From Thermoplasmata archaeon (lineage in GTDB: Archaea > Thermoplasmatota > Thermoplasmata > Lutacidiplasmatales > UBA184): a DNA stretch of 64,000 nt. The translations under genes were made by a program, and so were the position numbers. Location of the stretch: positions 696-64,695 of the forward strand of contig JAJYEA010000007.1 of the NCBI GenBank assembly GCA_021790425.1. The letters run 5' to 3'. Shown piece after piece: positions 32,024 through 53,271 of the stretch; the first letter of the stretch is position 1; the number at the start of each line of letters is the position of its first letter. Below the pieces are notes generated by a model, which was not told the origin of the DNA, made no database searches, and saw only the letters and a program-made list of their open reading frames with translations.

Positions 32024-32108
32024 TGTCCCGAGGCATTTAGGGGGAGCAGTATAAAAAGTTCCCCGGGAGGACCGGCTCGTCCCCCCGGGGGGGTTCACGC
32101 TCGGGCGT

Positions 32109-34460
32109 CTACTGGTGGGGAGGTGCTCCTCCGGAGTTGTCCCAGCCGGCCGAGCCCTGGGCATCCGAGGCGGGCGCGGCGGGGGGGGTCTTCTTGCGCA
32201 TCAACACCACGACGAGGACGCCGACCACGACCACGGCGACCACCCCGATGACGATGTAGAGGGTGGTTCCCGAGAGTCCTCCCGCTCCCCCGCCCGAGGA
32301 TCCCCCGGAGGAGGTCGCGGTGAACGTCACGGTCGAGGTCGCGTTCCCGGACACCGTCAGCGTGCCCTGGGCCGTCCCGACGGAGTATCCCGATGGCACG
32401 AGGACCCTGTAGTTGTAGGTCCCGGCCTTCACCGTGAAATCGAGTGACGCGGTCGAGGCGTTCTCGTACGTCCCGTTGAACTCGATCCCCCACGTGGTCC
32501 CGCCCGCCAGGCCCTGCTCGGTGAAGGTCACCGTGTAGGGGGGCACGATCTTGGTGAAGTTCACCTGCTGGGAGGCCGGGCCGCCCTGGACGGTGATCGA
32601 ACCGGAGGCCGGGCTTATCGAGTACCCCGCCACGTTCGCGACCGTGTAGAGGAACGTGGTGTTCGGTTCGTTGAAGACGATGGGGGTTCCCGCGGGGGCG
32701 GTGACCGTCGTCGCGCTGTTGTTGACCGACCACGAGGTGCCGGCGGGAAGCCCCACGGCCGTGAACGTCACCGCGTACTGCATCGGGACGAAGGTGAAGA
32801 CCACGCTGAGGGGCCCGACGTTGGTCCCGCTGATCGTGACCGAGCCCGTCGTGTTGGCGGGGGCGTACCGGTCCACCATCGGGATGGTGAAGGAGTACGT
32901 GCCGTTGATGTAGGGGCCGAAGCCGAGTGTCGGGGTCGTGGAATGGACGGTCATCCCGTTGAGCGTCACCGACCAGTTCGTGCCCGAAGGCAGGTTCACT
33001 TCCGTGAAGGCCACCGTGAACACGGCCCGGAAGGTGATCTGGACCGGTGCGGTGGAGGCACTCACGGTCACATTGCCCGACGACGGGGACGCGAGGTATC
33101 CTGCGGGCGCCGTTACCGTGTAGGGTAGGGTTCCGCCGGGCGCGATGAACGCCATCGTGGGGCCCGTTCCCAACTGCGTAGTCCCGTTGAAGAAGACCGA
33201 CCAGGCGATCCCGCCGTGGATCCCAGTCTGGTCGAACATGACCCCGTAGAAGCCGGGGACGACCTGCGTCCAGTTGATGAAGACCGTGACGCCGGCCCCC
33301 GCCACCGTGACGACCCCCGAGGCGTTGGTGGTCGGCTCCCAGCCGGAGACGGCACCCACGGAATAGGCGTACGTGCCGTTGTGCATGCCGCCGACGCTGA
33401 TGATGTAGGAGCTGGTCGTGTAGAGAGTGCCGTTGAAGGTCACGGTCCACGTGGTGGGACCGAAGCCGGCGAACTGGACGGCGTACTCCCCGGGGATCGG
33501 GGCGAACGTGATGTTCTGGAGCATGTTCATGGTGGCGACGTTGAGCGTTCCGCTCCCCGGCGTCGCCGAGTACCCGATCAGGGTGGTGTTCCACGGGTAC
33601 GACTTCGGGAGGATGTGCAGGACGACGATGGACGTCGTGCCTCCGAAGACGTTGGTGGAGTAGAGCGTGCTGTTGAACGTTACCGCGAAGGTGAGCCCGC
33701 GGGCGATCCCCTTCTCGGCGAACGTGACGGTGTACTGGCCCGGCGGCTCGTTGAAGGTGATGTTCTGGGTCACCGACGCCCCGTTGATCACGATGGTCCC
33801 GCTTGCGGGGCTGGGGATCAGGCCGAGGGCGTTCGAGGTGTTCCAGGAGTACGATCCGTTCTTGAACGGCTGGAACGTCAGTCCCCGGAAGCCGGCCGGC
33901 TGGTACGTCCCGTTGAAGGTCACTCCCCAGGAGGTTCCGCGGGGGAGACCGGTCTGCTGGAAGGTGACGGCGTACTCCCCAGGCGGGAGCACGAAGGTGA
34001 TGTTCTGCCGCACGGAAAGGCCGGCGACCGGGACCGTGCCGGAGGCCGGGGAAGCGTCCAGACCGGCCGCGGTGGGCACGCTGAAAGCGTACGACCCGTT
34101 GGGGATCGGGGCGTAGTAAATGGAGGAATAGCCGTCACTGAACTGGGTCACGCTGTTGAAGGTGACCGACCAGTTGGTGCCGGAGGGGAGGCCGGACTCG
34201 TGGAAGGTGACGTTGTATCCCTGGAAGGCCGACGCGCGGTCGGGGGCCGCGGAGGCGCGGGCGAAGCCGACGTGGCGAGGAACGCTCGCCGGGGAGACGG
34301 GGGCGAGGGTGAAGATCCCGGAGGCGACAAAAAGTATCACGACGACCACCGTGAGCACGACCATGCGTGCCGTCCACCGATCGCCGTTGCCGTGCGAGTT
34401 CCCGAGACGGACGAGTTTCGCCGTGCCTTCTGCTCCCTTGGGTCGACCGAGTATGCCCAT
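32109..34460 (-). CDS. Large surface protein with ~9 tandem ~75-85-aa repeats (motif YxVTFxExGLPxGTxWxVTFNGT...NGTYxY) and a C-terminal TM anchor
   Basis: Start MGILGRP, with a GGGGG Shine-Dalgarno-like element 6 nt upstream. It has an N-terminal TM/signal, then repeats distinct from the Ig-like family. It is NxT/S-rich. The C-terminal helix IVIGVVAVVVVGVLVVVLM is followed by RKK. Confidence 0.8.
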   Translation of the reverse strand: MGILGRPKGAEGTAKLVRLGNSHGNGDRWTARMVVLTVVVVILFVASGIFTLAPVSPASVPRHVGFARASAAPDRASAFQGYNVTFHESGLPSGTNWSVTFNSVTQFSDGYSSIYYAPIPNGSYAFSVPTAAGLDASPASGTVPVAGLSVRQNITFVLPPGEYAVTFQQTGLPRGTSWGVTFNGTYQPAGFRGLTFQPFKNGSYSWNTSNALGLIPSPASGTIVINGASVTQNITFNEPPGQYTVTFAEKGIARGLTFAVTFNSTLYSTNVFGGTTSIVVLHILPKSYPWNTTLIGYSATPGSGTLNVATMNMLQNITFAPIPGEYAVQFAGFGPTTWTVTFNGTLYTTSSYIISVGGMHNGTYAYSVGAVSGWEPTTNASGVVTVAGAGVTVFINWTQVVPGFYGVMFDQTGIHGGIAWSVFFNGTTQLGTGPTMAFIAPGGTLPYTVTAPAGYLASPSSGNVTVSASTAPVQITFRAVFTVAFTEVNLPSGTNWSVTLNGMTVHSTTPTLGFGPYINGTYSFTIPMVDRYAPANTTGSVTISGTNVGPLSVVFTFVPMQYAVTFTAVGLPAGTSWSVNNSATTVTAPAGTPIVFNEPNTTFLYTVANVAGYSISPASGSITVQGGPASQQVNFTKIVPPYTVTFTEQGLAGGTTWGIEFNGTYENASTASLDFTVKAGTYNYRVLVPSGYSVGTAQGTLTVSGNATSTVTFTATSSGGSSGGGAGGLSGTTLYIVIGVVAVVVVGVLVVVLMRKKTPPAAPASDAQGSAGWDNSGGAPPHQ

Positions 34461-34761
34461 GTTTTCCCCCTGACCGGTGAGGTCGGACCCTGCCCACCAC
34501 AATCCGCGGGATGATAACCATTTCCTACCCGTGCTTTTGCATACCATACCACTCCTTTTCACTGATAGGCTCAGGTCCCCTGCAGATCGTCTCGGCGAGG
34601 GCGAGGGGAGGGGCCCGCGGACCGGCCCTCGACACCCCCGCCCTTCCAGTCGAGGTAAACCATTAAATACCGGGAACCGGTAGATGTAACAGCCGACAAA
34701 TGTCAGACAAAGAGCGCAGAATCATGGCACGCCTGTCCGACAGAGCCGGGGTGAACGTCCC

Positions 34762-37700
34762 ACGTACCTGAAGAAGATACGGCTCCACAACTTCAAGTCC
34801 TTCGCCGGGACGACGGAGATCCCCTTCAATCCCGGATTCACCGGTGTCGCGGGTCCCAACGGGATGGGGAAGTCCAACATCTCGGATTCCATCCTCTTCG
34901 TCCTGGGCCCTCCGAGCTCGAAGGCGCTCCGGGCGGACCGTCTGACGCGCCTCTTCTTCAACGGCGGCAAGCAGGGCAAGCCGGCCACGGAGTGCGAGGT
35001 CTCGCTGATCTTCGACAACTCCGACCGGGCCATGGCCGTTGATTCCGACGAGGTGGAGCTGACCCGCTACGTCAAGGTCGCCCCCGGGGACCCCGACGGT
35101 TACTATTCCTACTTCTACGTGAACGGGCGGCGGAGCACCCAGACCGAGATGGACTCCCTCCTCGCCCGCGCCCGCCTCTCCGCCGAGGGATACAATGTCA
35201 TCCAGCAGGGAGAGGTGAACCGCATCATCGTGATGTCCCCCTTGGAGCGGCGCGGCCTGGCCGAGCGCCTTGCGGGGATCGCCCAGTATGACGAGGACCT
35301 CTCCAAGGCCGCCGACAAGCGGACGGCGGTCGAGACGAACATGTCCCAGCTCGGGACGATCCTCGGAGAGGTCGAGCGGAACCTCGCCCAGCTCGACGGC
35401 CAGCGCACGCAGGCGATCCGGTACCGGGACCTGTCGACCGCCAAGCACCAGTTGGAGGTCGCGATGGCCCGGACGAACATCAACAAGCTCCGTTCGGAGG
35501 TCGCGTCGGCCGAGAAGCAGCAGACCCAGTTGACCGCCGAGCTGGAGAAGCTCGGGTCCAAGCTCGCCGAGCTCCGGTCGCGGAAGACCGCCACCGAGGC
35601 CCAGATCCGGGAGCTCGAGGGGCAGATCGCCCAGCGGGCCGGGGCGGAGGCCCTTAAGGTCCAAGAGGAGAAGGACCGACGCAAGCTCGAGGTCGGCCGT
35701 CAGGAGATGGCCCTGACCAACACCCAGGCCGCGTTCAACGAGGCCACGGAGTCGAAGGCGCAGGTCGAGCACGAGCTCGCGACGCGCCGCAAGGACCTCA
35801 AGGCGCTCGAAGAGCGCACCCGCCGGCTCGAGGTGGAGGTCGCCACCATCGAGAAGCAGGTCGCAGAGCACCAGCGGTCGCTCACCTCCGCCCACGAGTC
35901 GAAGGAACTCTCCCAGAAGGCGGTGGAGCTCAAGCGGTCGCAGCTCGTCAACGAGCGGGACCAGGCCGCCAAGGGCGACGCCTGGCAGAAGGCCGTCCAG
36001 AAGGCGGAGACCGCCAAGGCGGAGCTCGCCTCGCTCGAGCAGAACAAGGCCCTCCTGGAAGAGGAGCTCGGGACCCGCCAGGCCGAGGTCAAGGACGCCG
36101 AGTTCCGGATCAAGAACACCTCCTCCTCCCGCAAGGGGGGCGAGAGCTCCATCCAGTCCCTGACGGACGAGATGCACTCGCTCAAGGCGAAGGAGAAGAA
36201 CCTCTCCGCCGCCTCCGAGCGGCTGAAGATCGAGACCCTCGAGCTGAACCGCTCGTACGCGGGCTTGGAGGCCAAGCTCAAGGAGCGCGGCGGTGGCGGA
36301 GGGGGCCCCGGCATGGCTGCCGACTTCCTCCTCTCGCAGCACAACCTGGGCCGGCTGCCCGGGATCCGGGGCAAGGTCGAGGACCTCGTCACGGTCGATC
36401 CCGAGCTCACCACGGCGATCTCCGTGGCCGGGGGAAGCCGCCTTCAGGCCCTCGTCGTCGACAACGATGAGGTGGCCGCCCAGTGCATCGACCTCCTGAA
36501 CAAGGAGAAGCGGGGCCGGGTCACCCTGCTCCCGCTGAACAAGATGGTCCCGGGACGCCCCAGGGGAAAGGCGCTGGTCGTCCAACACTCCCCCGGGTGC
36601 CGGGGATTCGCCCTCGACCTCGTCAAGTTCGACAAGAGCTTCGAGGACGCCCTCTGGTTCGTCTTCGGCGAGACCCTCATCATGGACAACCTGGACGCGG
36701 CCCGGAAGCAGATGGGCGGCGTCCGGCTGGTCACGCTCCGCGGGGAGCTCCTGGAGGCGACCGGTGCGATCACGGGGGGATTCCTCGGGGGATCGTCCGC
36801 GAGCCGGATGGCCGAGAACGCGGCCACCCTGAAGCACCTCGCCGAGCAGCTCGGTTCGAGGACGGCCGAGGAGGGCCGGGTCAACTCCGAGCTCCAGACG
36901 GTCACCCAGCGGCTCAAGGTCGTCACGGAAGAACTGGCCCGCCACTCGGGCGAGGTCACCGGGGCCCAGAGCGCCATGGACCAGCTCCAGAAGGACCTCA
37001 CCTCCGCCCGCGAGCGCCTCCGGGAGACCGAGGAACGGAGCCGCAAGGCGACGGCCCGGTACACGGAGCTCTCCCAGGAGTTCGAGGGGCTCAGCCGTCA
37101 GGCCGAGTCGGTCCAGAAGGAGCTCTCCGCGCTCAAGGCCGCCCACGAGGAGATCCAGAAGCAGTTCATCGATTTCCTGCCCGCCTCCCTCGGGGCCCGG
37201 ATGAAGAAGCTCCAGGAGGAGGGCCAGCAGCTCAACGAGACGCACGTGGCCAAGGTCCGCGACCTCGAGTCCGCGCGTTCGACATTGACCGCGTCCACCG
37301 AGACCCTGCGGTCGCGCGAGGCGGAGCTCGAGCGGCTGAAGACCCTGGTGGCCACGAAGGACACCGAGGTCAAGAAGATCGCCAAGGCTCTGGCCGAGGA
37401 GCGGGAGAAGCTCGCGACGGTCGAGAAGGTCGTCGAGTCCCAGAACCAGGTGTCGCGTACGCTCACCGTGAAGAAGGACGGGCTGCAGATCGAGCTCAAC
37501 AAGGTGACCGCCGACGAGGCCAGCACCGCGACGAAGCTGCAGACCCAGGAAGGCCTGGCGAAGGACTTCCAGATCCGGCTCGACACCCAGCGGGCCGCCC
37601 TCCAGGAGGCGGAGTCCGCGGTCCATGACCTGCCCGAGCTGCCCAAGGAGCTCCAGGGCAAGAGCCTGGAGGAGCTCCGCAAGGCCATGGTCGAGGCCAC

Positions 37701-38391
37701 CAACGCCCTCGAGGCGCTGGGTTCCGTCAACACCCTCGCCATCGACCAGTACGACTCCGAGAAGAAGCGCCTGGACGAGTTCCAGGGCGAGGTCACCCGG
37801 CTGAAGGAGGAGCGCGAAGGGCTCCTCGCGCTCGTGAAGGAGCTCGAGGAGAAGAAGCGGTCCCGGCTCGGCGAGGTCATCGGCGGCATCGACGAGAACT
37901 ACCGGAAGATCTACACGGAGCTCTCCGGCGGCGGGGAAGGCGAGCTCGTCATGGAGAACCCGAACGACCCGCTGGCGGGGGGCCTCCTCCTCCGCGCGCG
38001 TCCCCTCGGGAAGAAGGCGGACCGACTGGAGCAGCTCTCGGGCGGGGAGAAGTCCCTCGCCTCGCTGGCCTTCATCTTCGCCCTCCAGCGCTACGACCCC
38101 TCCCCGCTCTACGTGCTCGACGAGGTCGACATGAGCCTCGACGGGGTCAACGCGGAGAACATCGGCCGCATGTTCCGGCGCAACTCCGCGAAGGCCCAGT
38201 TCATCGTGATCTCGCTCCGGAAGGTAACGCTCAAATGGTCGGAGCACCTGTTCGGCGTGACGATGCGGGGGGACGGCCGTTCACAGGTGGTGGGCCTCCG
38301 CCTCGATGACATCAAGGACATCGACGAGCGGGAGCTGTCGGAGATGGCTTCCCAGCCGAACAACGTCGCCAAGGCGGACGGAGGGAGCTAG
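34762..38391 (+). CDS. smc: Chromosome segregation protein SMC (apparent non-AUG start)
   Basis: Conserved N-terminus (T)YLKKIRLHNFKSFAGTTEIPFNPGFTGVAGPNGMGKSNISDSILFVLG. The frame is open back to a TAA at ~34690 with no ATG/GTG/TTG in frame; the first canonical start (34864) would delete Walker A. Long coiled coils, a hinge, and the C-terminal LSGGEKSLASLAFIFAL plus DEVD are present. Confidence 0.9.
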   Translation, partial: TYLKKIRLHNFKSFAGTTEIPFNPGFTGVAGPNGMGKSNISDSILFVLGPPSSKALRADRLTRLFFNGGKQGKPATECEVSLIFDNSDRAMAVDSDEVELTRYVKVAPGDPDGYYSYFYVNGRRSTQTEMDSLLARARLSAEGYNVIQQGEVNRIIVMSPLERRGLAERLAGIAQYDEDLSKAADKRTAVETNMSQLGTILGEVERNLAQLDGQRTQAIRYRDLSTAKHQLEVAMARTNINKLRSEVASAEKQQTQLTAELEKLGSKLAELRSRKTATEAQIRELEGQIAQRAGAEALKVQEEKDRRKLEVGRQEMALTNTQAAFNEATESKAQVEHELATRRKDLKALEERTRRLEVEVATIEKQVAEHQRSLTSAHESKELSQKAVELKRSQLVNERDQAAKGDAWQKAVQKAETAKAELASLEQNKALLEEELGTRQAEVKDAEFRIKNTSSSRKGGESSIQSLTDEMHSLKAKEKNLSAASERLKIETLELNRSYAGLEAKLKERGGGGGGPGMAADFLLSQHNLGRLPGIRGKVEDLVTVDPELTTAISVAGGSRLQALVVDNDEVAAQCIDLLNKEKRGRVTLLPLNKMVPGRPRGKALVVQHSPGCRGFALDLVKFDKSFEDALWFVFGETLIMDNLDAARKQMGGVRLVTLRGELLEATGAITGGFLGGSSASRMAENAATLKHLAEQLGSRTAEEGRVNSELQTVTQRLKVVTEELARHSGEVTGAQSAMDQLQKDLTSARERLRETEERSRKATARYTELSQEFEGLSRQAESVQKELSALKAAHEEIQKQFIDFLPASLGARMKKLQEEGQQLNETHVAKVRDLESARSTLTASTETLRSREAELERLKTLVATKDTEVKKIAKALAEEREKLATVEKVVESQNQVSRTLTVKKDGLQIELNKVTADEASTATKLQTQEGLAKDFQIRLDTQRAALQEAESAVHDLPELPKELQGKSLEELRKAMVEATNALEALGSVNTLAIDQYDSEKKRLDEFQGEVTRLKEEREGLLALVKELEEKKRSRLGEVIGGIDENYRKIYTELSGGGEGELVMENPNDPLAGGLLLRARPLGKKADRLEQLSGGEKSLASLAFIFALQRYDPSPLYVLDEVDMSLDGVNAENIGRMFRRNSAKAQFIVISLRKVTLKWSEHLFGVTMRGDGRSQVVGLRLDDIKDIDERELSEMASQPNNVAKADGGS

Positions 38392-39380
38392 TGACGCTAC
38401 CCGCCCAGGAGGCCAAGGAACTCGCGCTCACCGCCTCGCCGGTCTCGCGCGAAGCGGCCGAGCACGTGCTCGACTACCTCCTCTGGAACAAGGCCATGAT
38501 CGGGGAGAACATGGCCGTCACCGAGCGGCTCGAGAAGTACCTCGACATGGTCCGGAACCTGAAGGAGGGGGTCCACGTCGTGATCCAGGATCCCTACGAG
38601 CGGGCGACGGCGCTCCTCTTCGAGCTCGTGCTCTCCGAGGAGTTCAACCCGTGGGCGATCGACCTGGTCCGCTTCACCCAGCTCTATCTCGACCGCATCA
38701 AGGTCACCGGGATGGACTTCCCGATCGCGGGACGCCTCATCTACATGGCCTGGAACATCCTCTTCCTGCAGTCCCAGGTGGTCCTCTCCTCCCGCAAGGA
38801 CCCGGACCCGCTCCCCCAGGACCCGGGGGCCGTCCCGCTCGAGGACGGGTATCTCGGGGAGATGTCCTCCCCGGAGGAGCTGGACGTCACGAACACGATC
38901 CTCACCTCCCCGGAGCCCCCCTTCTCGGCGATGGTGCGCCACGCCGAGACCCGGCCCGTCAGCCTGATGGAGCTCGCTCGGGCGTTCACCGAGGCCGAGA
39001 CCGAGGCCCGCCTGGCCCTCGAGGCCGAGGAGGCGCGCCAGAAGATGCGGAAGGAGCAGGCGCTCGTCCGCGACGTGCTGGTCCACGGGGAGGAAGTGCC
39101 CCTGAGCGACCTCACCGCGGTGTGGGACATCGCGCTCAAGCACCCGATCGGGGAGCGCTTCACCTTCGAGGAGGCCCTGGAGGGCATCAGCAGCCGGGAG
39201 CGCGTGGTGTCGCTCTTCCTCTCCATGCTCTTTCTCGTCCAGCGCGGCGGCATCACCCTTCACCAGGACATGATCGGCCGAGGGGCCATCTTCCTGGTCC
39301 GGACGCAGGATACGATGGACTCCACCGGGATGCTCGTGAAGAGCGACGTCCCCCCGCCGGTGGCCACGCCCAACAACTGA
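38391..39380 (+). CDS. scpA: Segregation and condensation protein A (kleisin)
   Basis: The GTG overlaps the smc stop (TAGTG). ScpA-like N-terminus LDYLLWNKAMIGENMAVTE...FNPWAIDLVRFTQLYL; 329 aa. Confidence 0.85.
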   Translation: MTLPAQEAKELALTASPVSREAAEHVLDYLLWNKAMIGENMAVTERLEKYLDMVRNLKEGVHVVIQDPYERATALLFELVLSEEFNPWAIDLVRFTQLYLDRIKVTGMDFPIAGRLIYMAWNILFLQSQVVLSSRKDPDPLPQDPGAVPLEDGYLGEMSSPEELDVTNTILTSPEPPFSAMVRHAETRPVSLMELARAFTEAETEARLALEAEEARQKMRKEQALVRDVLVHGEEVPLSDLTAVWDIALKHPIGERFTFEEALEGISSRERVVSLFLSMLFLVQRGGITLHQDMIGRGAIFLVRTQDTMDSTGMLVKSDVPPPVATPNN

Positions 39381-39384
39381 ACCC

Positions 39385-40053
39385 ATGGGCAGCAACAAGG
39401 TCCCGGCAACGGAGAACGATCTCCTCCTCAAGATCGAGGCCCTCCTCTTCGCCGCGGGCAAGCCCCTCACCGTCCACGAGCTGGCCGGTTCCCTGGGCAC
39501 CCCGGACTGGAACGCCGTCCAGCACCTCCTGAAGAAGCTCCAGCACAACTACGGCTCCCGGCAGACGGCCCTCGAGATCCGGCGGGCCGGGGACGGCTGG
39601 GCCATCCAGCTGAAGAAGGACCTCACCCCGGTCGCCCACAAGGTGGCCGCCGCCGAGATCCCCCGCAGGACCCTGAAGACCCTCGCGCTCATCGCCTACC
39701 ACCAGCCGATCCGGCAGAGCCGCCTCGCCCGGATGATCGGGGACTACGTCTACGAGGACATCCCCCGGCTCCGCGAGCTCGGGTTCATCCGGGCGGCCGA
39801 GCGCGCCAACACGCTCGAGCTCACCACCACCTCGAAGTTCGCGGAGTACTTCGGCTTCGAGACCGCGGACAAGGCGAAGCTCAAGGTGCTGATGGAGCAG
39901 GGGCTCGGGATCGAGCGCCCGGCCGCCCCGGCCGATGCCGCCCCCGCGGAGGAGGGCGAACCTCCGGCGGACCCTCCCGCGGAGTCACAGGCCGCCGAAC
40001 CCTCGCCCCCCCGCCCCAAAGAGGGCCTTCCCCGCGCCGGTCCCGGGGCCTGA
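39385..40053 (+). CDS. scpB: Segregation and condensation protein B
   Basis: Two winged-helix ScpB signatures: IEALLFAAGKPLTVHELAG and LKTLALIAYHQPIRQSRLARMIG. It is 4 nt after scpA. Confidence 0.85.
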   Translation: MGSNKVPATENDLLLKIEALLFAAGKPLTVHELAGSLGTPDWNAVQHLLKKLQHNYGSRQTALEIRRAGDGWAIQLKKDLTPVAHKVAAAEIPRRTLKTLALIAYHQPIRQSRLARMIGDYVYEDIPRLRELGFIRAAERANTLELTTTSKFAEYFGFETADKAKLKVLMEQGLGIERPAAPADAAPAEEGEPPADPPAESQAAEPSPPRPKEGLPRAGPGA

Positions 40054-40069: not shown

Positions 40070-43000
40070 TTACGCGCTCTTCTCGGCGGCCTTGGAACCG
40101 ACGGCGTTCCGGAGTTCCTGGACGGCCTCGTTCGCCGCCGACAGGGCTCCCTCGTAGTTCCCGTCCGCCTTGAGCTGGATCGACCGGTCCAGGAGCTCGG
40201 AGGGGTGGGCCGTGGGCAGGTGCGCCTCTTGCGCCTGTCCGATAAGCGTGTCGATGAGGTAGTGGAGGTCCGCCAGCTCCTTCTGCCAGCCCTTCCTTCG
40301 GGTGAGCTCCACCCCGAGGTCGATGAGCTCGCGGGTGGCCCCGAGGAGCTTGCCCTGGGCCTGCTGCTCCTGGGCCGACTTGATGCGCTCCGGGAGCCCC
40401 TGGATCGCCACGTTGAACCCGTCGCGGGCCTTCTGGACGCTCTTCTCCATCTCCTGGAGCTTCGCGGTGAGCGGCGCGGCGAGGAGGTGCTCCAGCTTCG
40501 TCCGCGTCGCGATGATCCGCTGGACTGCCGCGTCGGGAGTGTCCTGGCGCAGGAGGGTCCGGGCCTCGGTGACCCCTTCGGCGATGGGACTCCCGTCGAC
40601 CCCGATCTTCTCCGCCAGCCGGGCCCCCTTTTCGAGCTTCTCCATCTCGCCGTTGACGTAGGCGAGGAGCACCTCGTTGATGCGGGTGTGGAGTCCCCGG
40701 GTCGACTCGGTGGCCTCCGCGAAGCCCCGACGGGACAGTTCCCCCCGGACCGCCGTGGCCTTCTCGTCGACCGAGGCGACGTCCGCATCGGACAGCCGCC
40801 CCTTGACGGGTTCCAGACGCTCGGCCTCCTCCGCGAGGATCGCCTCGATACGGGTGACCGCGGTCTTCTGGGTCTCCTCCGAGATCCGTACCGCCGCGGA
40901 CCAGTCCTCGAGCGCTCGGGCCTGGCGGGCCTCCTGGGTGGCCTTCGTGAAGGCGACCGCCGGGCTCTCGTCCCCCGCGAAGTAGTCGATCACGGGCCGG
41001 AGGGAGTCCAGACGGGCGCTGAGCGACTGGTCGAAGAGCGTGCGGGCGCGTTCGTAGGCGCCCCGGACGGTGCTGTCCGCCTCGAGGTAGCTTCCCTTGC
41101 TGGCGAGCGCATCCGCGGAGTGCAGCGCGGTCTCGATATCGGCCCGGTCCACCGAGAGCCGGTCGAGCGCGCCGAGGATCGGTTCCATCCGCTGCCTCGT
41201 CTCCTGGAACCGGTTGCGTTGCAGGGTGGCCTGCTGGATCAGGTCGTTCGTCCGCATCACCAGCTCGAGGAGCTGGGAGTACTCCCCGCTCTCGAAGGAC
41301 TTGCGGGCGGTGGCGAGGTCCGTGGCCGCCTGGGGGACGATGAGGCCCGCCTTGTCGGCGTCTTCCACGTGCGCCGAGATGGTCTGGAGCGAGTTCTGCG
41401 CGATGGAGTATTGGAGTTCCACCTTCTCGAGCTCGTTCTCGGCCTGGGTCACGAGCTGCAGGACCTCCATGGGGGTGGTCGACCCCACGAGTCCCCGGGC
41501 CTTCGCGAGGTAGTTCTCGGCCACCATGGTGAGGGCTCCCTCCCGCTTCGCGCGGGTGATCAGCCCCTGGAGGTTGGACAGGACCTGGTTCAGGTGCGCG
41601 CGCACCAGCGTTCCCGCCTGGTCCTTGACGCCCTGGGCACCCTCGAGCACCCCGCCGTAGTCCATGGCCCGGTGGCGGTCCTCCAGCTGAGCCAGCCGGG
41701 GAAGGATCGCCTTCACGTCGAGGCGCATCAGGTCGGCCTGGTTCACGATCTCGCGGGACTCCGCGAGCGCGCGATTGGCGGTCTCCTGGAAGGCCTTGCT
41801 CTGGAAGAACTGCTTCCGGACCTGCCCGATGGCCCGGCCCACGCCCGTGGGGAACTTCTCGGACATCTTGGTCCGGACGTCGGAGAGGAGCGCATCGGCC
41901 TCCCGGGTCTCGAGGCCCTGCTCCCGGGCGACCCGGAGCTCCCCATCGAGGGTCGCGAGCTGCTCGTCGAGGACCGGGCGGAGCTTCGCCAGGATCTCGA
42001 CCCCCAGCTCCTCCAATTGCTTCTGCGGACCCTGGGGGTCGCCGGCCTGGGAGTCCTTGAGGCAGGCCTCCGCGCGCTCGAGCCAGGCGGTCTCGGGCAG
42101 CCCCAGGGCCCCCGTCCCGTCGACCACCGCCTTCAGCGTCTCGTTGAGGGTGCGGGAGTCCATGCGCAGCGAGAGCTGGTTCCCCAGCTGACGGATCTCC
42201 ACGATCGTGGCCTCGGCGGTGTCGAACGCGAGCGACTGGTAGGCGGTCCGGACGTCGGCGATCTTCGAGGTGAGGAGGCGGAGCTCCTCCGGAGTGGCAC
42301 CGCGCTTCCGGAGCGCGGTCATCTGGTTCACGATCTGGCTGATCCGGTCCACGATGCTCTGGGCCGTGGACTGGATGGAGTGGGCCGTGTTGGTGGCGCG
42401 CTGGGCGGTCTCCAGCGCCTCGAGAGGGTTCCCCGACTGGAGGGACGTGCGGGCGGCCTCGAGCAGGTCCTTTACGGTCGCGGGTTCGGGCACGGTCTTC
42501 GAGACCTCGACCAGAGCGAGCTTGGCCTCGGAGAGCGCCTCCTCCGCCCGCGTGGCCGCGAGCTGGGACATCGCGGCGAGGATCTCCTGGCCCGACTTCG
42601 CGGCGCGGGGGTAGTCCCCGAGGTCGAAGATCTCCCGGACCCGGGTGATCTCCCGGGACCGGTCCTCGAGGGGTATCCCCATCTTTCCGAGGCGCGTGAG
42701 GGCATCATCCAGGTCGGCGACGACCCGGCCCACCTCGGTGGCCATGGTGATGTTGATCTCGCGTTCGGCCTCTGTGAGCTTCTGGAGGAACCCGAGCGTG
42801 TCCGGGCCCGCAAAGGCCCGTACCTGGGCGAGAGTGGCCTGGGCCTGGTTGCGCGTGGTCTCGTCCGCGATGAGGGATGCGGTCTGGTCGAGCTCATCGA
42901 GCCGGGCTTGGATCGAGGGAGCCACCGCCTCCTTGAGCTGGATCGAGAGCTGGGAGAGAACCTCCGCGGCCTCGGCTACCCGTGCGGAGGAGAGGAGAAG

Positions 43001-44491
43001 GTTCGCTTCCTCGATGTGGGCGCTCATCTCGTCCGGGTACGTCCAGTGGCGCTCGGAGAGCGCCGTGAGGGTGCGTTCGACCCGGTCCAGCTGTTCCCCG
43101 AGGAACTGGCTGCTCTCGCGTCCGACGGCCCGGATGCCCTCGCGCAGGCTGGCCCGCGCGACGGTGAAGTCGCGCTTGACGAGCGCGGCCTCGGCCTCCT
43201 GGATGTACTGCTGGAAGCGCGAGGCGTCGAGGCCTCCGGAGCCGAGCCGGCCGATCAGGGCCTTGAACTCCTCGAGCTCGGTGTGGGCGATCTCCATGTC
43301 CTCCACGGAGGACCGGGCACTATCGAGGACGTCCGAGGAGACCTTGAGCGCGCGGGTGTAGTCCTTGTCGCGGATCGCGTCCCGGACCCCGCGGATCTTC
43401 TCCACGGTCTGGTCGACGTTGCGGCCGAGGTCCCGCGCCTCCTCCATGTAGGTGCGCACCTCCTCCAGGCGTTCGAAGACGACCCGGAGCACGGGAGGCT
43501 CGATGAGCCCCTGGGCCCGGGCGAGCAGGGGGAATCCTTCGGGGAGCGGGACCCGGTCCACCTCGACCACGAGGGCCTCCAATTCGTGCGGCACCTCTCC
43601 GGCGTCCGCGCCGGAGTTCGTGGCGGTGGTGAGCGCGTCCTTGAGCTCTTGAAGGCGAGCACGGAGGCTGCTCCGTCCCTGCTCCTCCAGCTGGGTGCGA
43701 GCCGCAGCGAGCTTGGCCCCCACCTTGTCGGCGGAGATCAGCGAGGAGGACCGGCTCCGTTCCGCCAGCTTCTGCGCCTCGGTGACGTCGACCCCGAGGT
43801 TCTTCGCCACCGGGATCGCGGCCTCGAGGTCGGAGAACTCCTTGCGGAGCTTCTCCACCACCTGGGGGGCGGAGGACTTCAGGTTCTCCTCAAAGCAGCC
43901 TGCGGCACCCTTGAGGTCCCGCTTCTCAACGAACTCGAGACAGGGAGAGAGCGCCTTCCGGACGCCCTCCTCCATCTCGGAGGGAACCGCCCACTTCAGG
44001 AGGGCATCGACCTGGTCACCGAGCCAGACCAGCCCGGACTCCTCGGTCTTCTGGAGGTCCGGCTCGAGGGCCCTGATCTCCTCCAGCGCCTCGGCGGGCT
44101 TGTTCTCGGAGACGAAGCGGTTGAGCGCCTCCACCCGGGTGCGCTGCTCGTCCGTGGGCTCGAGTCCCATCGTCGGGAGTCCCTCGAGACGGAGCTGGAG
44201 CGCCTTGGAGCGTTCCTCGAGCTTGGACTGCAGTAGGGTCCGCGCCTCCTGTTCCAGGGCGGTGGTGAGCTTCTCGGCCTCGTCCCACGCCGGACGGCGG
44301 GTGGCCCGTGTGATCGCCTCTTCCTTGTCCGGGAAGGCGAAGGCGCCGTTGTCGAGGGAACGGCCAAGTCCGAGGATGGACTCGAGCTTCGATCGGGCGG
44401 TCTCGTAGGCGGCCTTCTGCGTCCGGAGCTCTTCGGCCTTTTGGGCCAGGCTCTTTTGCCGAAAACCGTCCAACCTCCCACCCGGTATCAC
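40070..44491 (-). CDS. Giant (1473-aa) all-alpha-helical coiled-coil/spectrin-like protein of unknown function
   Basis: GTG start with GAGGG ~7 nt upstream. The composition is balanced (A/L/E/R/Q/T/K/S) and no TM or P-loop was found. Long heptad-compatible segments run throughout. The opposite-strand ORF (39935..44236) is L/G/R/P-rich antisense noise and overlaps scpB. Confidence 0.75.
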   Translation of the reverse strand: MIPGGRLDGFRQKSLAQKAEELRTQKAAYETARSKLESILGLGRSLDNGAFAFPDKEEAITRATRRPAWDEAEKLTTALEQEARTLLQSKLEERSKALQLRLEGLPTMGLEPTDEQRTRVEALNRFVSENKPAEALEEIRALEPDLQKTEESGLVWLGDQVDALLKWAVPSEMEEGVRKALSPCLEFVEKRDLKGAAGCFEENLKSSAPQVVEKLRKEFSDLEAAIPVAKNLGVDVTEAQKLAERSRSSSLISADKVGAKLAAARTQLEEQGRSSLRARLQELKDALTTATNSGADAGEVPHELEALVVEVDRVPLPEGFPLLARAQGLIEPPVLRVVFERLEEVRTYMEEARDLGRNVDQTVEKIRGVRDAIRDKDYTRALKVSSDVLDSARSSVEDMEIAHTELEEFKALIGRLGSGGLDASRFQQYIQEAEAALVKRDFTVARASLREGIRAVGRESSQFLGEQLDRVERTLTALSERHWTYPDEMSAHIEEANLLLSSARVAEAAEVLSQLSIQLKEAVAPSIQARLDELDQTASLIADETTRNQAQATLAQVRAFAGPDTLGFLQKLTEAEREINITMATEVGRVVADLDDALTRLGKMGIPLEDRSREITRVREIFDLGDYPRAAKSGQEILAAMSQLAATRAEEALSEAKLALVEVSKTVPEPATVKDLLEAARTSLQSGNPLEALETAQRATNTAHSIQSTAQSIVDRISQIVNQMTALRKRGATPEELRLLTSKIADVRTAYQSLAFDTAEATIVEIRQLGNQLSLRMDSRTLNETLKAVVDGTGALGLPETAWLERAEACLKDSQAGDPQGPQKQLEELGVEILAKLRPVLDEQLATLDGELRVAREQGLETREADALLSDVRTKMSEKFPTGVGRAIGQVRKQFFQSKAFQETANRALAESREIVNQADLMRLDVKAILPRLAQLEDRHRAMDYGGVLEGAQGVKDQAGTLVRAHLNQVLSNLQGLITRAKREGALTMVAENYLAKARGLVGSTTPMEVLQLVTQAENELEKVELQYSIAQNSLQTISAHVEDADKAGLIVPQAATDLATARKSFESGEYSQLLELVMRTNDLIQQATLQRNRFQETRQRMEPILGALDRLSVDRADIETALHSADALASKGSYLEADSTVRGAYERARTLFDQSLSARLDSLRPVIDYFAGDESPAVAFTKATQEARQARALEDWSAAVRISEETQKTAVTRIEAILAEEAERLEPVKGRLSDADVASVDEKATAVRGELSRRGFAEATESTRGLHTRINEVLLAYVNGEMEKLEKGARLAEKIGVDGSPIAEGVTEARTLLRQDTPDAAVQRIIATRTKLEHLLAAPLTAKLQEMEKSVQKARDGFNVAIQGLPERIKSAQEQQAQGKLLGATRELIDLGVELTRRKGWQKELADLHYLIDTLIGQAQEAHLPTAHPSELLDRSIQLKADGNYEGALSAANEAVQELRNAVGSKAAEKSA

Positions 44492-44544
44492 AATCGAACC
44501 CTCGGTTATCAGAGGGGGGGAAGACGGAAAAAACCTCCGACCGC

Positions 44545-44931
44545 TCAGTCGAGGTTGATCTGCCGCCGTCCCATCGTGGAGATGTAGGGTACCTCGTTAC
44601 CGGGCTTCAAGCGCTCCTTGAGCTCGCCCTTCAGGGGGAGGTTGAAGGTCTCGTAGCTCTCCATGTCCATGAGCTGGACTTCCTCCTCCGACAACGAGAG
44701 GACCTGGGCGGTGCGCTTGTTGATGATCGGGACCTGCACCTTGTGCTTGACAGGGTGCACCACGGAGCGCTTGTTGCCGTCGAAGATACCGACGGCGTCG
44801 ATCCGGGCCTTCGCTTCACCGTGCTTCCCCGGTTTGGAGGTTTGGATGGACAGAATTTTGCAGGGCTCGTTGTCCACGATCATGTACCGTCCTTCCTTGA
44901 GCTCTCTCACTTCAGCCTGCGTCCACGCCAT
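44545..44931 (-). CDS. Translation initiation factor 5A (aIF-5A)
   Basis: Start MAWTQAEV. Hypusination loop [11 protein letters not shown], plus the SH3-like and OB domains. The stop is 53 nt before the giant coiled-coil gene. Confidence 0.9.
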
Positions 44932-51042: not shown

Positions 51043-51114
51043 CTTTCGGTCGAAACCGCTTCCAATGGAACGCGCACTTTAAGTACCCCTCCGAGCAATT
51101 CTGTTGTCTGACAG

Positions 51115-51570
51115 ATGTCCGACGGACCCTTCTACCCGGAATACAAACCGCGAAAGGTCGGTGACATCTGGTCGCTCAAGAAGATCGTGGAGCAGGTCAC
51201 CGGCAAGCCGCTCTCCTCATTCCAAGATCCGGTGAAGACCGTGCGGCCGGAACCGGATTACGTGAACCCGCCTCCACCTCGCGCACCCCCCGTCACGTCG
51301 TTCCTGGCCCGACCGGATCCCGACACGCTGCCGACGCTCCCCGAGCTTGATGCTCCCCCCCGGCGGGTGCTCACATATCACACCGTCTCCTCGTCCCGGC
51401 CATCGCACAGGTCGCCGGCGGACCTGGAGCGCAAGTACCTCGCCTACCTGATGCTCCACCTCGATTCCCTGAGCGACCCGGCGCTCCGGTACCTGCGGCA
51501 GGCCGTGGAAGATGAGTACCACGGACGAGGCGAAGAGCAGCGCAAGCCCGCCCGCCGCGCGCGGCGCTGA
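51115..51570 (+). CDS. Hypothetical Pro-rich protein
   Basis: 151-aa ORF with coding-like GC3 in the gap between citrate synthase and the thermosome; no recognisable domain. Confidence 0.4.
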   Translation: MSDGPFYPEYKPRKVGDIWSLKKIVEQVTGKPLSSFQDPVKTVRPEPDYVNPPPPRAPPVTSFLARPDPDTLPTLPELDAPPRRVLTYHTVSSSRPSHRSPADLERKYLAYLMLHLDSLSDPALRYLRQAVEDEYHGRGEEQRKPARRARR

Positions 51571-51648: not shown

Positions 51649-53271
51649 ATGATGCAGAGCGCAGGGACTCCGATACTGGTACTTCGAGAGGGTAGCGAAC
51701 GCGAGAAGGGCAAGGGCGCGACATCGAGCAACGTGGCGGCCGCGAAGGCGATCGCCGACACGGTGAAGAGCACCCTGGGTCCGCGGGGCATGGACAAGAT
51801 GCTCGTTGGCGGGATGGGGGACATCACCATCACGAACGACGGGGTAACGATCCTCAAGGAGCTCGAGGTCGAGCATCCTGCGGCGAAGATGATGGTCGAG
51901 GTCGCCAAGACCCAGGACCAGCAGTGCGGGGACGGAACCACGTCCGCCGTGGTCCTCGCCGGGGAGTTCCTCAAGCGCTCCGAGCCGCTCCTCGACCAGA
52001 ACGTCCACCCCACCGTCCTTACTCGCGGATTCTCCGTTGCGCTCCAGGAGGCGGAGCGGATTCTGAAGGAGGAGATCGGCATCCCCGTCAAGGACGACGA
52101 CACGTCCGGCCTCATCACCGTCGCGAACACGGCCATGAACTCCAAGGGGGTCGATGGCAAGGAAGGGCTCGCGGAGAAGGTGGTCAAGGCCGTCAAGACC
52201 ATCGCCGAGAAGCGCGACCACCGGACGGTCGCGGACGTCACGCTCGTCCAGATCGTCAAGAAGACGGGTGGGACGATCTCCGATACGGAACTCATCGATG
52301 GGCTCGTGCTCGACAAGGAGCGCGGCCACCCCCGGATGCCCAAGGAGATCAAGAACGCGAAGATCGCGCTCCTCAACAGCGCCCTCGAGATCAAGAAGAC
52401 CGAGTTCGAGAGCAAGATCAACATCAAGTCCCCCGGCCAGATCCAGAACTTCCTCGACGAGGAGGACCGGACCTTCCGGGAGTACGTCGACCGGGTCAAG
52501 GGAGCCGGAGCCAACGTCGTGATCTGCCAGAAGGGGATCGACGACGTCGTGTTGCACTACCTGGCCAAGGCCGGAATCTACGCGATCAAGCAGGTCAAGG
52601 AGTCCGACATGCAGAAGCTCGCCCGCGCCACCGGGGCCCGGGTCGTCACCGGCATCCGCGAGCTCACCCCGAAGGACCTCGGATCCTCGGCGAAGGTCGA
52701 GGAGAAGAAGGTCGGGGACTCGGACATGACCTACGTGACCGGCTGCAACAACGCCCGCAGCGTCTGCCTGCTCATCCGCGGTGGAACGGAGCACGTGGCC
52801 GACGAGGTCGAGCGCTCCCTGCAAGACGCCCTCAAGGTGGTCTCGGCTACGGTGGAGGACGGCTTCATCTGCCCGGGAGGCGGCGCGACCGAGATGGAGC
52901 TCGCCATCAAGCTCCGGAAGTTCGCCCCGACCGTCGGCGGACGCGAGCAGCTCGCCGTCGAAGCCTTCGCCCAGGCCCTCGAGGTCATCCCGTGGGCCCT
53001 CACGGAGAACGCCGGGTTCGACGCCATCAACACGATCATCGAGCTCCGCCAGGCCCATGAGTCCGGCCACAAGAACGCGGGCGTCAACATCGAGAACGGA
53101 AAGACGCAGGACATGGTCGAGCGCAAGATCCTGGAGCCCCTCCGGGTGAAGACCCAGGCGCTCTCCTCGGCGACCGAGGCGGCCAACATGGTCCTCCGGA
53201 TCGACGACGTCATCGCGTCGAGGAAGTCGGGCGGCGCCGGCCCCATGCCCGGCGGCCACTCGCACGACTAG
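51649..53271 (+). CDS. ths: Thermosome subunit (group II chaperonin)
   Basis: GPRGMDKML, ITNDGVTIL, GDGTTS and an apical domain; the C-terminal GG(M)PGG tail is absent, ending ...GPMPGGHSHD. A TATA tttatata lies ~40 nt upstream, with GAGG before the ATG. Confidence 0.97.
   Translation: MMQSAGTPILVLREGSEREKGKGATSSNVAAAKAIADTVKSTLGPRGMDKMLVGGMGDITITNDGVTILKELEVEHPAAKMMVEVAKTQDQQCGDGTTSAVVLAGEFLKRSEPLLDQNVHPTVLTRGFSVALQEAERILKEEIGIPVKDDDTSGLITVANTAMNSKGVDGKEGLAEKVVKAVKTIAEKRDHRTVADVTLVQIVKKTGGTISDTELIDGLVLDKERGHPRMPKEIKNAKIALLNSALEIKKTEFESKINIKSPGQIQNFLDEEDRTFREYVDRVKGAGANVVICQKGIDDVVLHYLAKAGIYAIKQVKESDMQKLARATGARVVTGIRELTPKDLGSSAKVEEKKVGDSDMTYVTGCNNARSVCLLIRGGTEHVADEVERSLQDALKVVSATVEDGFICPGGGATEMELAIKLRKFAPTVGGREQLAVEAFAQALEVIPWALTENAGFDAINTIIELRQAHESGHKNAGVNIENGKTQDMVERKILEPLRVKTQALSSATEAANMVLRIDDVIASRKSGGAGPMPGGHSHD

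Follow-up and report, generated by a model that had tools for sequence, protein, structure and literature searches.

ACG at the initiator position of an intact smc gene in an uncultured Thermoplasmata archaeon

The smc gene of an uncultured soil archaeon, a Lutacidiplasmatales-like species of the Thermoplasmata, carries ACG at the position at which its orthologues start with ATG or GTG. The gene lies in a stretch of 64,000 nucleotides (contig JAJYEA010000007.1 of GenBank assembly GCA_021790425.1, positions 696 to 64,695; G+C content ~67%), the whole of which is referred to below as the window. Searches with its proteins and with the locus set it among uncultured Thermoplasmata akin to the Lutacidiplasmatales. 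We found that the ACG is a real and fixed ATG-to-ACG substitution shared by two diverged strains, and that smc is under purifying selection while carrying it. To the reading that the SMC protein of this intact, functional gene is translated by near-cognate initiation at ACG 34762 we give about an even chance.

The conserved initiator position of smc

The positions that concern the start of the gene are:

34762..38391, forward strand: smc, 1209 codons and a stop
34762..34764, forward strand: ACG, the proposed smc start, by alignment to the conserved initiator position
34768..34770, forward strand: CTG (Leu3), the alternative near-cognate start, which forms CTGA with the stop of an upstream open reading frame (uORF)
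34864..34866, forward strand: the first canonical in-frame ATG, used by gene callers, not the real start

The smc frame (QPTNVRQRAQNHGTPVRQSRGERP-TYLKKIRLHNFKSFAGTTEIPFNPGFTGVAGPNGMGKSN) is open from 34690, directly after a TAA at 34687-89, and from there to 34864 it holds no canonical start (ATG, GTG or TTG), as an earlier, sequence-only reading of the window had stated. The first in-frame canonical codon, ATG 34864, lies within the Walker A motif GPNGMGKS, and the open reading frame (ORF) called from it has 1175 amino acids. The same reading had aligned ACG 34762 with the initiator methionine of SMC, and this alignment turned out to be exact: of 81 orthologous loci (80 from GTDB species representatives and one ENA contig), 73 have ATG at this codon and 8 have GTG, with no other codon seen. 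Indeed, when the 120 best full-length homologues were compared, 117 showed NFKSF at residue 10 (pattern M/V-x-L-K-x-h-x-h-x-NFKSF), that is, they start at the aligned methionine without an extension. Comparison of the orthologous smc 5′ ends therefore confirmed the conserved start, and a shorter N-terminus, which the earlier reading had thought unlikely to be the norm, is not normal. Outside the window species there are two exceptions among the 120, both apparent and due to the choice of the gene caller.

Two proteins were considered as further cases and rejected. P0174 is called from a GTG five codons in, but the ATG at the conserved position of its contig (L084) is normal, so that only the choice of the gene caller is involved. 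P0018 also starts at the internal MGKSN, but its contig (L002, a Flye long-read assembly) has a normal GTG with a Shine-Dalgarno sequence (SD), followed by a 1-nt deletion, an artefact. The window species is the sole one, among ~80, with a non-canonical codon at the smc initiator position. Since a single base is changed, chance is not the relevant test; this uniqueness is.

The 33 codons between the ACG and ATG 34864 keep 29 of 33 amino acids identical to the nearest species (L003), and 14 of the 20 nucleotide differences from that species fall at third codon positions. This stretch is therefore coding, and the internal ATG, already discounted by the sequence-only reading, cannot be the start. 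The ACG is a one-base variant of AUG at the orthologous start, and no canonical start preserves the conserved N-terminus. A scan of the 64 kb found no gene other than smc with a long coding-like stretch before its first canonical start.

Independent contigs and selection on smc

The window is identical to a 69-kb MEGAHIT metagenome contig (ENA ERZ27233562:k141_1604962), and a single base in a short-read metagenome assembly, judged without read inspection, could be an artefact: a T read as C at 34763, or an indel upstream, with ATG as the true start. The sequence-only reading had allowed for both, in the second case for an indel that would fuse the uORF to smc. However, the 90%-identity cluster of the 1175-amino-acid call includes a second protein (P0122, 1174 amino acids) from another sample, ERZ27233565. 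Its independently assembled contig, L083, shows 185 differences from the window over ~9530 aligned positions (~1.9% over 9.5 kb), has the same ACG, and is identical to the window in the leader and the N-terminal region. The identical 1175-amino-acid call is also present on a third, 73.5-kb contig at NCBI, and an exact look-up in a collection of 15 billion proteins found no ATG-initiated 1209-amino-acid version. Because a diverged contig from a second sample has the same ACG and leader, a random base error and an indel are excluded; the fused uORF is further contradicted by the 117 homologues that start at the aligned methionine. All told, we regard an artefact as highly improbable. Exact-pattern scans around the smc start in JGI metagenomes yielded no further strains.

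The outgroups all start smc with ATG or GTG, so the ACG arose on the branch that leads to the window species. The nearest SMC from another species is only 64% identical; this branch is therefore long, and the origin of the ACG is not datable more finely.

The encoded protein is a complete SMC. It matches TIGR02169 (SMC_prok_A) with 862 bits against a cutoff of 729.4, model positions 1-1165 corresponding to residues 2-1181, so that the first model position is aligned to residue 2. Pfam matches are SMC_N and SMC_hinge (hinge E = 5e-30), and the Walker A (GPNGMGKS), signature (LSGGEKS) and Walker B (LYVLDEVD) motifs are intact. The partner genes, for the kleisin and ScpB, adjoin smc:

38391..39380, forward strand: scpA-like gene with a GTG start and a 1-nt overlap with the smc stop; its SMC_ScpA matches are weak, and the assignment is supported by its operon position, which is as expected
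39385..40053, forward strand: scpB (PF04079, SMC_ScpB, E = 4.8e-31)

The locus is an ordinary smc-scpAB operon. As in the canonical smc-scpA-scpB arrangement, a full-length SMC with its ATPase motifs and hinge is followed by scpA and scpB; the start codon is the sole oddity.

Between the window and L083, smc has 39 synonymous (Sd) and 13 non-synonymous (Nd) differences, plus one in-frame 3-nt indel, which gives dS = 0.045 and dN/dS = 0.106; under neutrality ~120 non-synonymous changes would be expected against the 13 observed. The neighbours have dN/dS values of 0.07 (scpA), 0.17 (scpB) and 0.10 (the downstream gene), from which that of smc is indistinguishable. No stop or frameshift was found in its 1209 codons (3.6 kb). 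The gene is thus under purifying selection while carrying ACG and is not a pseudogene. The indel, at 36292-36294, distinguishes a glycine run of GGGGGG from one of GGGGG just before the SMC hinge.

These values also bear on whether the ACG recently abolished smc function or left the gene strongly hypomorphic, with SMC barely or not made and its lack tolerated. A mutated start codon is a typical first inactivating lesion, and deletion of smc is viable in Haloferax volcanii. Moreover, switches to non-NUG codons were almost never seen among 61,358 ancestral starts inferred to have been AUG, only 3 of which changed to CUG or AUU (PMC5622118). Against such an allele, two strains at dS = 0.045 share the ACG with an smc dN/dS of 0.11 between them, there is no stop or frameshift over 3.6 kb, and neither the SD and leader nor scpA and scpB are damaged. 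We consider this explanation improbable.

Proposed initiation at the ACG

The ACG is preceded by a strong ribosome-binding sequence:

34748..34754, forward strand: Shine-Dalgarno sequence GGGGTGA, by predicted duplex with an assumed 16S 3′ end

With the 16S 3′ end taken as AUCACCUCCU, which is assumed and not read from this genome, the GGGGUGA duplex is predicted at -10.9 kcal/mol against an orthologue median of -8.6, and only 7 of 74 orthologues have one as strong or stronger (~top 10%). Its distance to the ACG is 6 nt, the modal spacing of the orthologues (5-8 nt in 56 of the 81 loci), whereas its distance to CTG 34768 is 12 nt, which is atypical (≤9 nt in 75 of 81). SD-directed initiation at the ACG is favoured by this geometry, a strong SD standing at modal spacing from the ACG and 12 nt from the CTG. 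The sequence-only reading had listed near-cognate initiation at either codon as one of several options; purifying selection, together with an SD at a normal distance from the ACG, now makes it the favoured one, with the ACG preferred over the CTG.

In the mechanism that we propose, an mRNA leader of ~65-70 nt with its strong SD would position the ribosome at ACG 34762, where initiator Met-tRNA would read the ACG and insert methionine. Initiation would probably proceed at a much reduced rate, which may be tolerable for a low-copy protein such as SMC, and the uORF may assist by termination-reinitiation. The use of ACG rather than CTG 34768, the insertion of methionine and the low efficiency are all points that we infer. 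In Escherichia coli, ACG belongs to the class of codons that initiate at 0.1-1% of AUG, and the product carries an N-terminal methionine, with some threonine (Hecht et al., bioRxiv 10.1101/063800).

The CTG is nevertheless a serious alternative, though unlikely and less probable than the ACG. Initiation there would give M-K-K-I-R-L-H-N-F-K-S-F, an SMC that lacks residues 1-2 and has methionine for Leu3, a replacement that would leave strand beta-1 its hydrophobic residue. Genetic code table 11 recognises CTG as a rare start, and with the stop of the uORF this codon forms CTGA, the classic 4-nt overlap of termination-reinitiation. In E. coli it is the stronger of the two, at 1-2% of AUG (10.1101/063800). 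However, besides the atypical SD distance, an N-terminus this short is absent from all 120 full-length homologues, and CTG at codon 3 is simply a common leucine codon in the orthologues. Since the CTG-AAG (Leu-Lys) pair is conserved in them, the CTGA overlap follows from the protein sequence.

Natural prokaryotic starts other than AUG, GUG and UUG include AUU, with which infC and pcnB begin in E. coli, and, rarely, CUG. Like the infC and pcnB starts, that of smc would be a one-base variant of AUG at a conserved start behind an SD, in an intact, selected gene, with reduced efficiency expected. It differs from them in that table 11 does not count ACG among its initiators and the E. coli measurements put it in the weakest class, that the host is an archaeon with eukaryote-like initiation factors (archaeal aIF1, aIF1A and aIF2 are homologues of eukaryotic ones), and that no autoregulatory logic of the infC/IF3 type is apparent. 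Initiation at ACG occurs in eukaryotes and their viruses, for example for VP2 of adeno-associated virus and C′ of Sendai virus. The smc case may resemble these in that ACG would be read by the initiator tRNA in a favourable context. In those systems, however, the context is scanning and a Kozak sequence and the product is usually an isoform beside that from an AUG, whereas here the SD would do the positioning and ACG would be the sole start. In archaea, harringtonine profiling of H. volcanii found that ~30% of putative alternative initiation sites are near-cognate (PMC7261190).

Several points weigh against initiation at the ACG. The support is genomic only and comes from an uncultured organism, translation being deduced from sequence; the case is rare, well supported at the genomic level and conjectural for the protein. 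The one prokaryote with measurements, E. coli, initiates poorly at ACG, and less well than at CUG (10.1101/063800). In reviews on archaea, only AUG, GUG and UUG are named as starts (PMC7531240), and our search of the literature found no documented ACG start in archaea. In the predicted local structure the start region is slightly more occluded than that of most orthologues, with a mean unpaired probability of 0.31, the orthologue median being 0.43. Finally, the ACG allele may be younger than the split of the two strains and have spread by recombination, the window and L083 having no differences from 34585 to 35003; an equally long difference-free stretch at 36586-37025, inside smc, means that this tract is not unusual.

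Initiation at the ACG would have consequences for annotation. Gene callers shorten this SMC by 34 residues, which removes half of Walker A, and the 1175- and 1174-amino-acid calls in public collections are mis-annotated, N-terminally truncated proteins; any pipeline restricted to ATG, GTG and TTG repeats the error. Well-supported natural starts outside AUG, GUG and UUG are very rare in prokaryotes, and a selected gene with ACG offers a concrete substrate for testing the stringency of archaeal start-codon choice, given the eukaryote-like factors. It is probably a new instance of a known phenomenon, non-canonical initiation, and concerns one codon in one uncultured species, as read from its sequence.

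Upstream ORF, promoter and surrounding genes

The elements upstream of the ACG are:

34663..34669, forward strand: TTAAATA, the smc promoter's TATA box, which lies 99 nt upstream of the ACG
34695..34708, forward strand: promoter-proximal conserved element GACAAATGTCAGAC, which includes the uORF ATG 34700
34700..34771, forward strand: uORF of 23 codons (MSDKERRIMARLSDRAGVNVPRT, then a stop) in frame +2 with respect to smc, ending at TGA 34769-71, a stop that overlaps codons 3-4 of smc
34734..34740, forward strand: a further copy of GTCCGAC within the leader; only the window lineage and L003-L006, its closest relatives, have it, all at the same relative position

A uORF of 16 codons from ATG 34724 had been described by the sequence-only reading. 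Its stop and frame hold, but not its start: ATG 34724 is an internal methionine of the 23-codon ORF that begins at 34700. The position of that start is ATG in four species (the window species, L003, L004/5 and L006) and CTG or CCG in about 70 others. The uORF is open in all four; the equivalents in L003, L004/5 and L006, the only ones, have 24-26 codons with the same frame and stop position. The distances from the uORF ATG to the smc start are 62, 65, 65 and 71 nt, and, as all equal 2 mod 3, the uORF always stops at smc codons 3-4. Its ATG lies 37 nt after the start of the TATA box, the same distance as for ATG 51115 behind a second copy of the conserved element (described below), which suggests a near-leaderless start.

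SMC might thus be made mainly through the uORF, by near-leaderless translation, termination at TGA 34769-71 and local reinitiation at the ACG or the CTG, in which case the identity of the start codon would matter less. The shared 37-nt TATA distance and the open frame, with its constant stop, in all four species that have the ATG speak for this. Termination-reinitiation is established in archaea as a local event (Huber et al. 2019, PMC6728339; PMC10666635). As in those cases, the upstream ORF would end a few nucleotides from the downstream start, with the SD inside it and a phase of the ATGA type; here, however, the upstream partner would be a predicted uORF of 23 codons and not a gene. The overlap of its stop is 10 nt with the ACG and 4 nt (CTGA) with the non-canonical CTG, whereas typical coupling overlaps are 1, 4 or 8 nt, so that the ACG is not in a favoured position. 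Further, the ATG belongs to a conserved DNA or RNA element and is lacking in ~70 other species, the sample is only four related species in a region where, at 67% G+C, stop-free frames are common, and the transcription start follows from promoter geometry and is not mapped. The relatives with the uORF also still use ATG or GTG for smc. We therefore hold production of SMC mainly through the uORF to be of low probability.

A related proposal for the clade of the window species and L003-L006 is that smc is translated via a leaderless uORF overlapping its start, and that codon-tolerant reinitiation let ACG be fixed as the sole start in the window species. This we think quite unlikely; if true, an archaeon would naturally start a core chromosome-maintenance gene at a non-canonical codon through coupling to a uORF.

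The start might also be supplied by recoding. One route would be a -1 frameshift from the uORF into smc, which would add an N-terminal extension of 21 amino acids; the uORF is in the right frame relation, and a slip at C CCA before CGT is conceivable. Codon-by-codon inspection of its 23 codons, however, revealed no slippery heptamer of the form X XXY YYZ, and no orthologue has an N-terminal extension. The other would be C-to-U editing of the mRNA to restore AUG. Editing of ACG to AUG creates start codons in plant organelles, but to our knowledge mRNA C-to-U editing is not known in archaea, and we give it, taken alone, the smallest probability of any explanation considered. Recoding by either route has a very small probability. 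No initiator-like tRNA that would read ACG was found; the only tRNAs in the window are tRNA-Ala(CGC) and tRNA-Thr(GGT). Near-cognate initiation at the ACG remains the reading that we prefer.

The promoter and leader of smc are conserved. Nearly all orthologous loci carry TTAAATA, or a sequence close to it, ~95-110 nt upstream of where smc starts, and general archaeal promoter geometry would place the transcription start ~27-30 nt after the TATA box. In all ~75 loci with enough upstream sequence, GACnnnnGTCnGAC follows ~34 nt after the TATA start, with 11 positions invariant. The common architecture is a TATA box ~100 nt upstream, the element, a leader of ~65-70 nt, a purine-rich SD and the start, and the window keeps all of these. 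The consensus over ~75 Thermoplasmata species (window 34663-34740; L002-L084) is TTAAATA-TGGCKGACAGG...GCTGACAWCYGTCNGACAAACRG.

The 3′ part of the conserved leader could fold into a hairpin of 7 bp that has ACAAA as its loop (75% of cells are paired, slid controls giving 26-42%), with CG/UA covariation at one pair. The same element can equally be read as CTGACA repeats phased by 11 nt, which would make it an operator for a transcription factor that covers the transcription start. In the window lineage the 3′ arm of the hairpin is missing, and the second GTCCGAC, at 34734-40, is there instead. A search against Rfam returned nothing meaningful for the smc leader among known RNA families.

A second copy of the element lies at 51078-51123, where a palindrome, GTCTGACAGATGTCCGAC, stands 28 nt after a TATA-like sequence, TTTAAGTA. 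Within it, ATG 51115 opens an ORF of 151 amino acids (51115-51570), which also begins with MSD, has no Pfam or NCBIfam match, and is directly upstream of a thermosome gene (Cpn60_TCP1) at 51649. The two copies suggest a small regulon, smc and the 51115 locus, that would share the operator. Leaderless and SD-led genes both occur in the window, in a survey whose TATA patterns were too strict for 67% G+C; no bacterial-type promoters or terminators were found in the window, as expected for an archaeon.

Frameshifts shorten many SMC orthologues in the protein database (P0001, P0014, P0021, P0022, P0024 and P0026), several of them at the same place after GISQY. Programmed frameshifting at this site was considered and rejected as an assembly artefact: both contigs inspected (L002, 2960-2990; L085, 4520-4535) come from Flye assemblies of long reads, in which smc is broken into at least three pieces, and in L085 a surplus C stands at GTAC|GAC. 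That the break recurs at one place would be explained by basecalling that repeatedly errs at a GTAC site, perhaps a methylated one.

Of the other genes around the operon, the one upstream of smc (32109-34562, reverse strand, ~783 amino acids, with no convincing Pfam match) has a dN/dS of 0.33 between the two strains, faster than its neighbours, with a cluster of ~25 differences at 32361-32464; 1-nt indels at 32087 and 34492 change its called length from 783 to 751 amino acids. Convergent with scpB is a very long ORF of ~1470-1500 amino acids (40070-44596, reverse strand), for which the contig's gene table holds no Pfam families.

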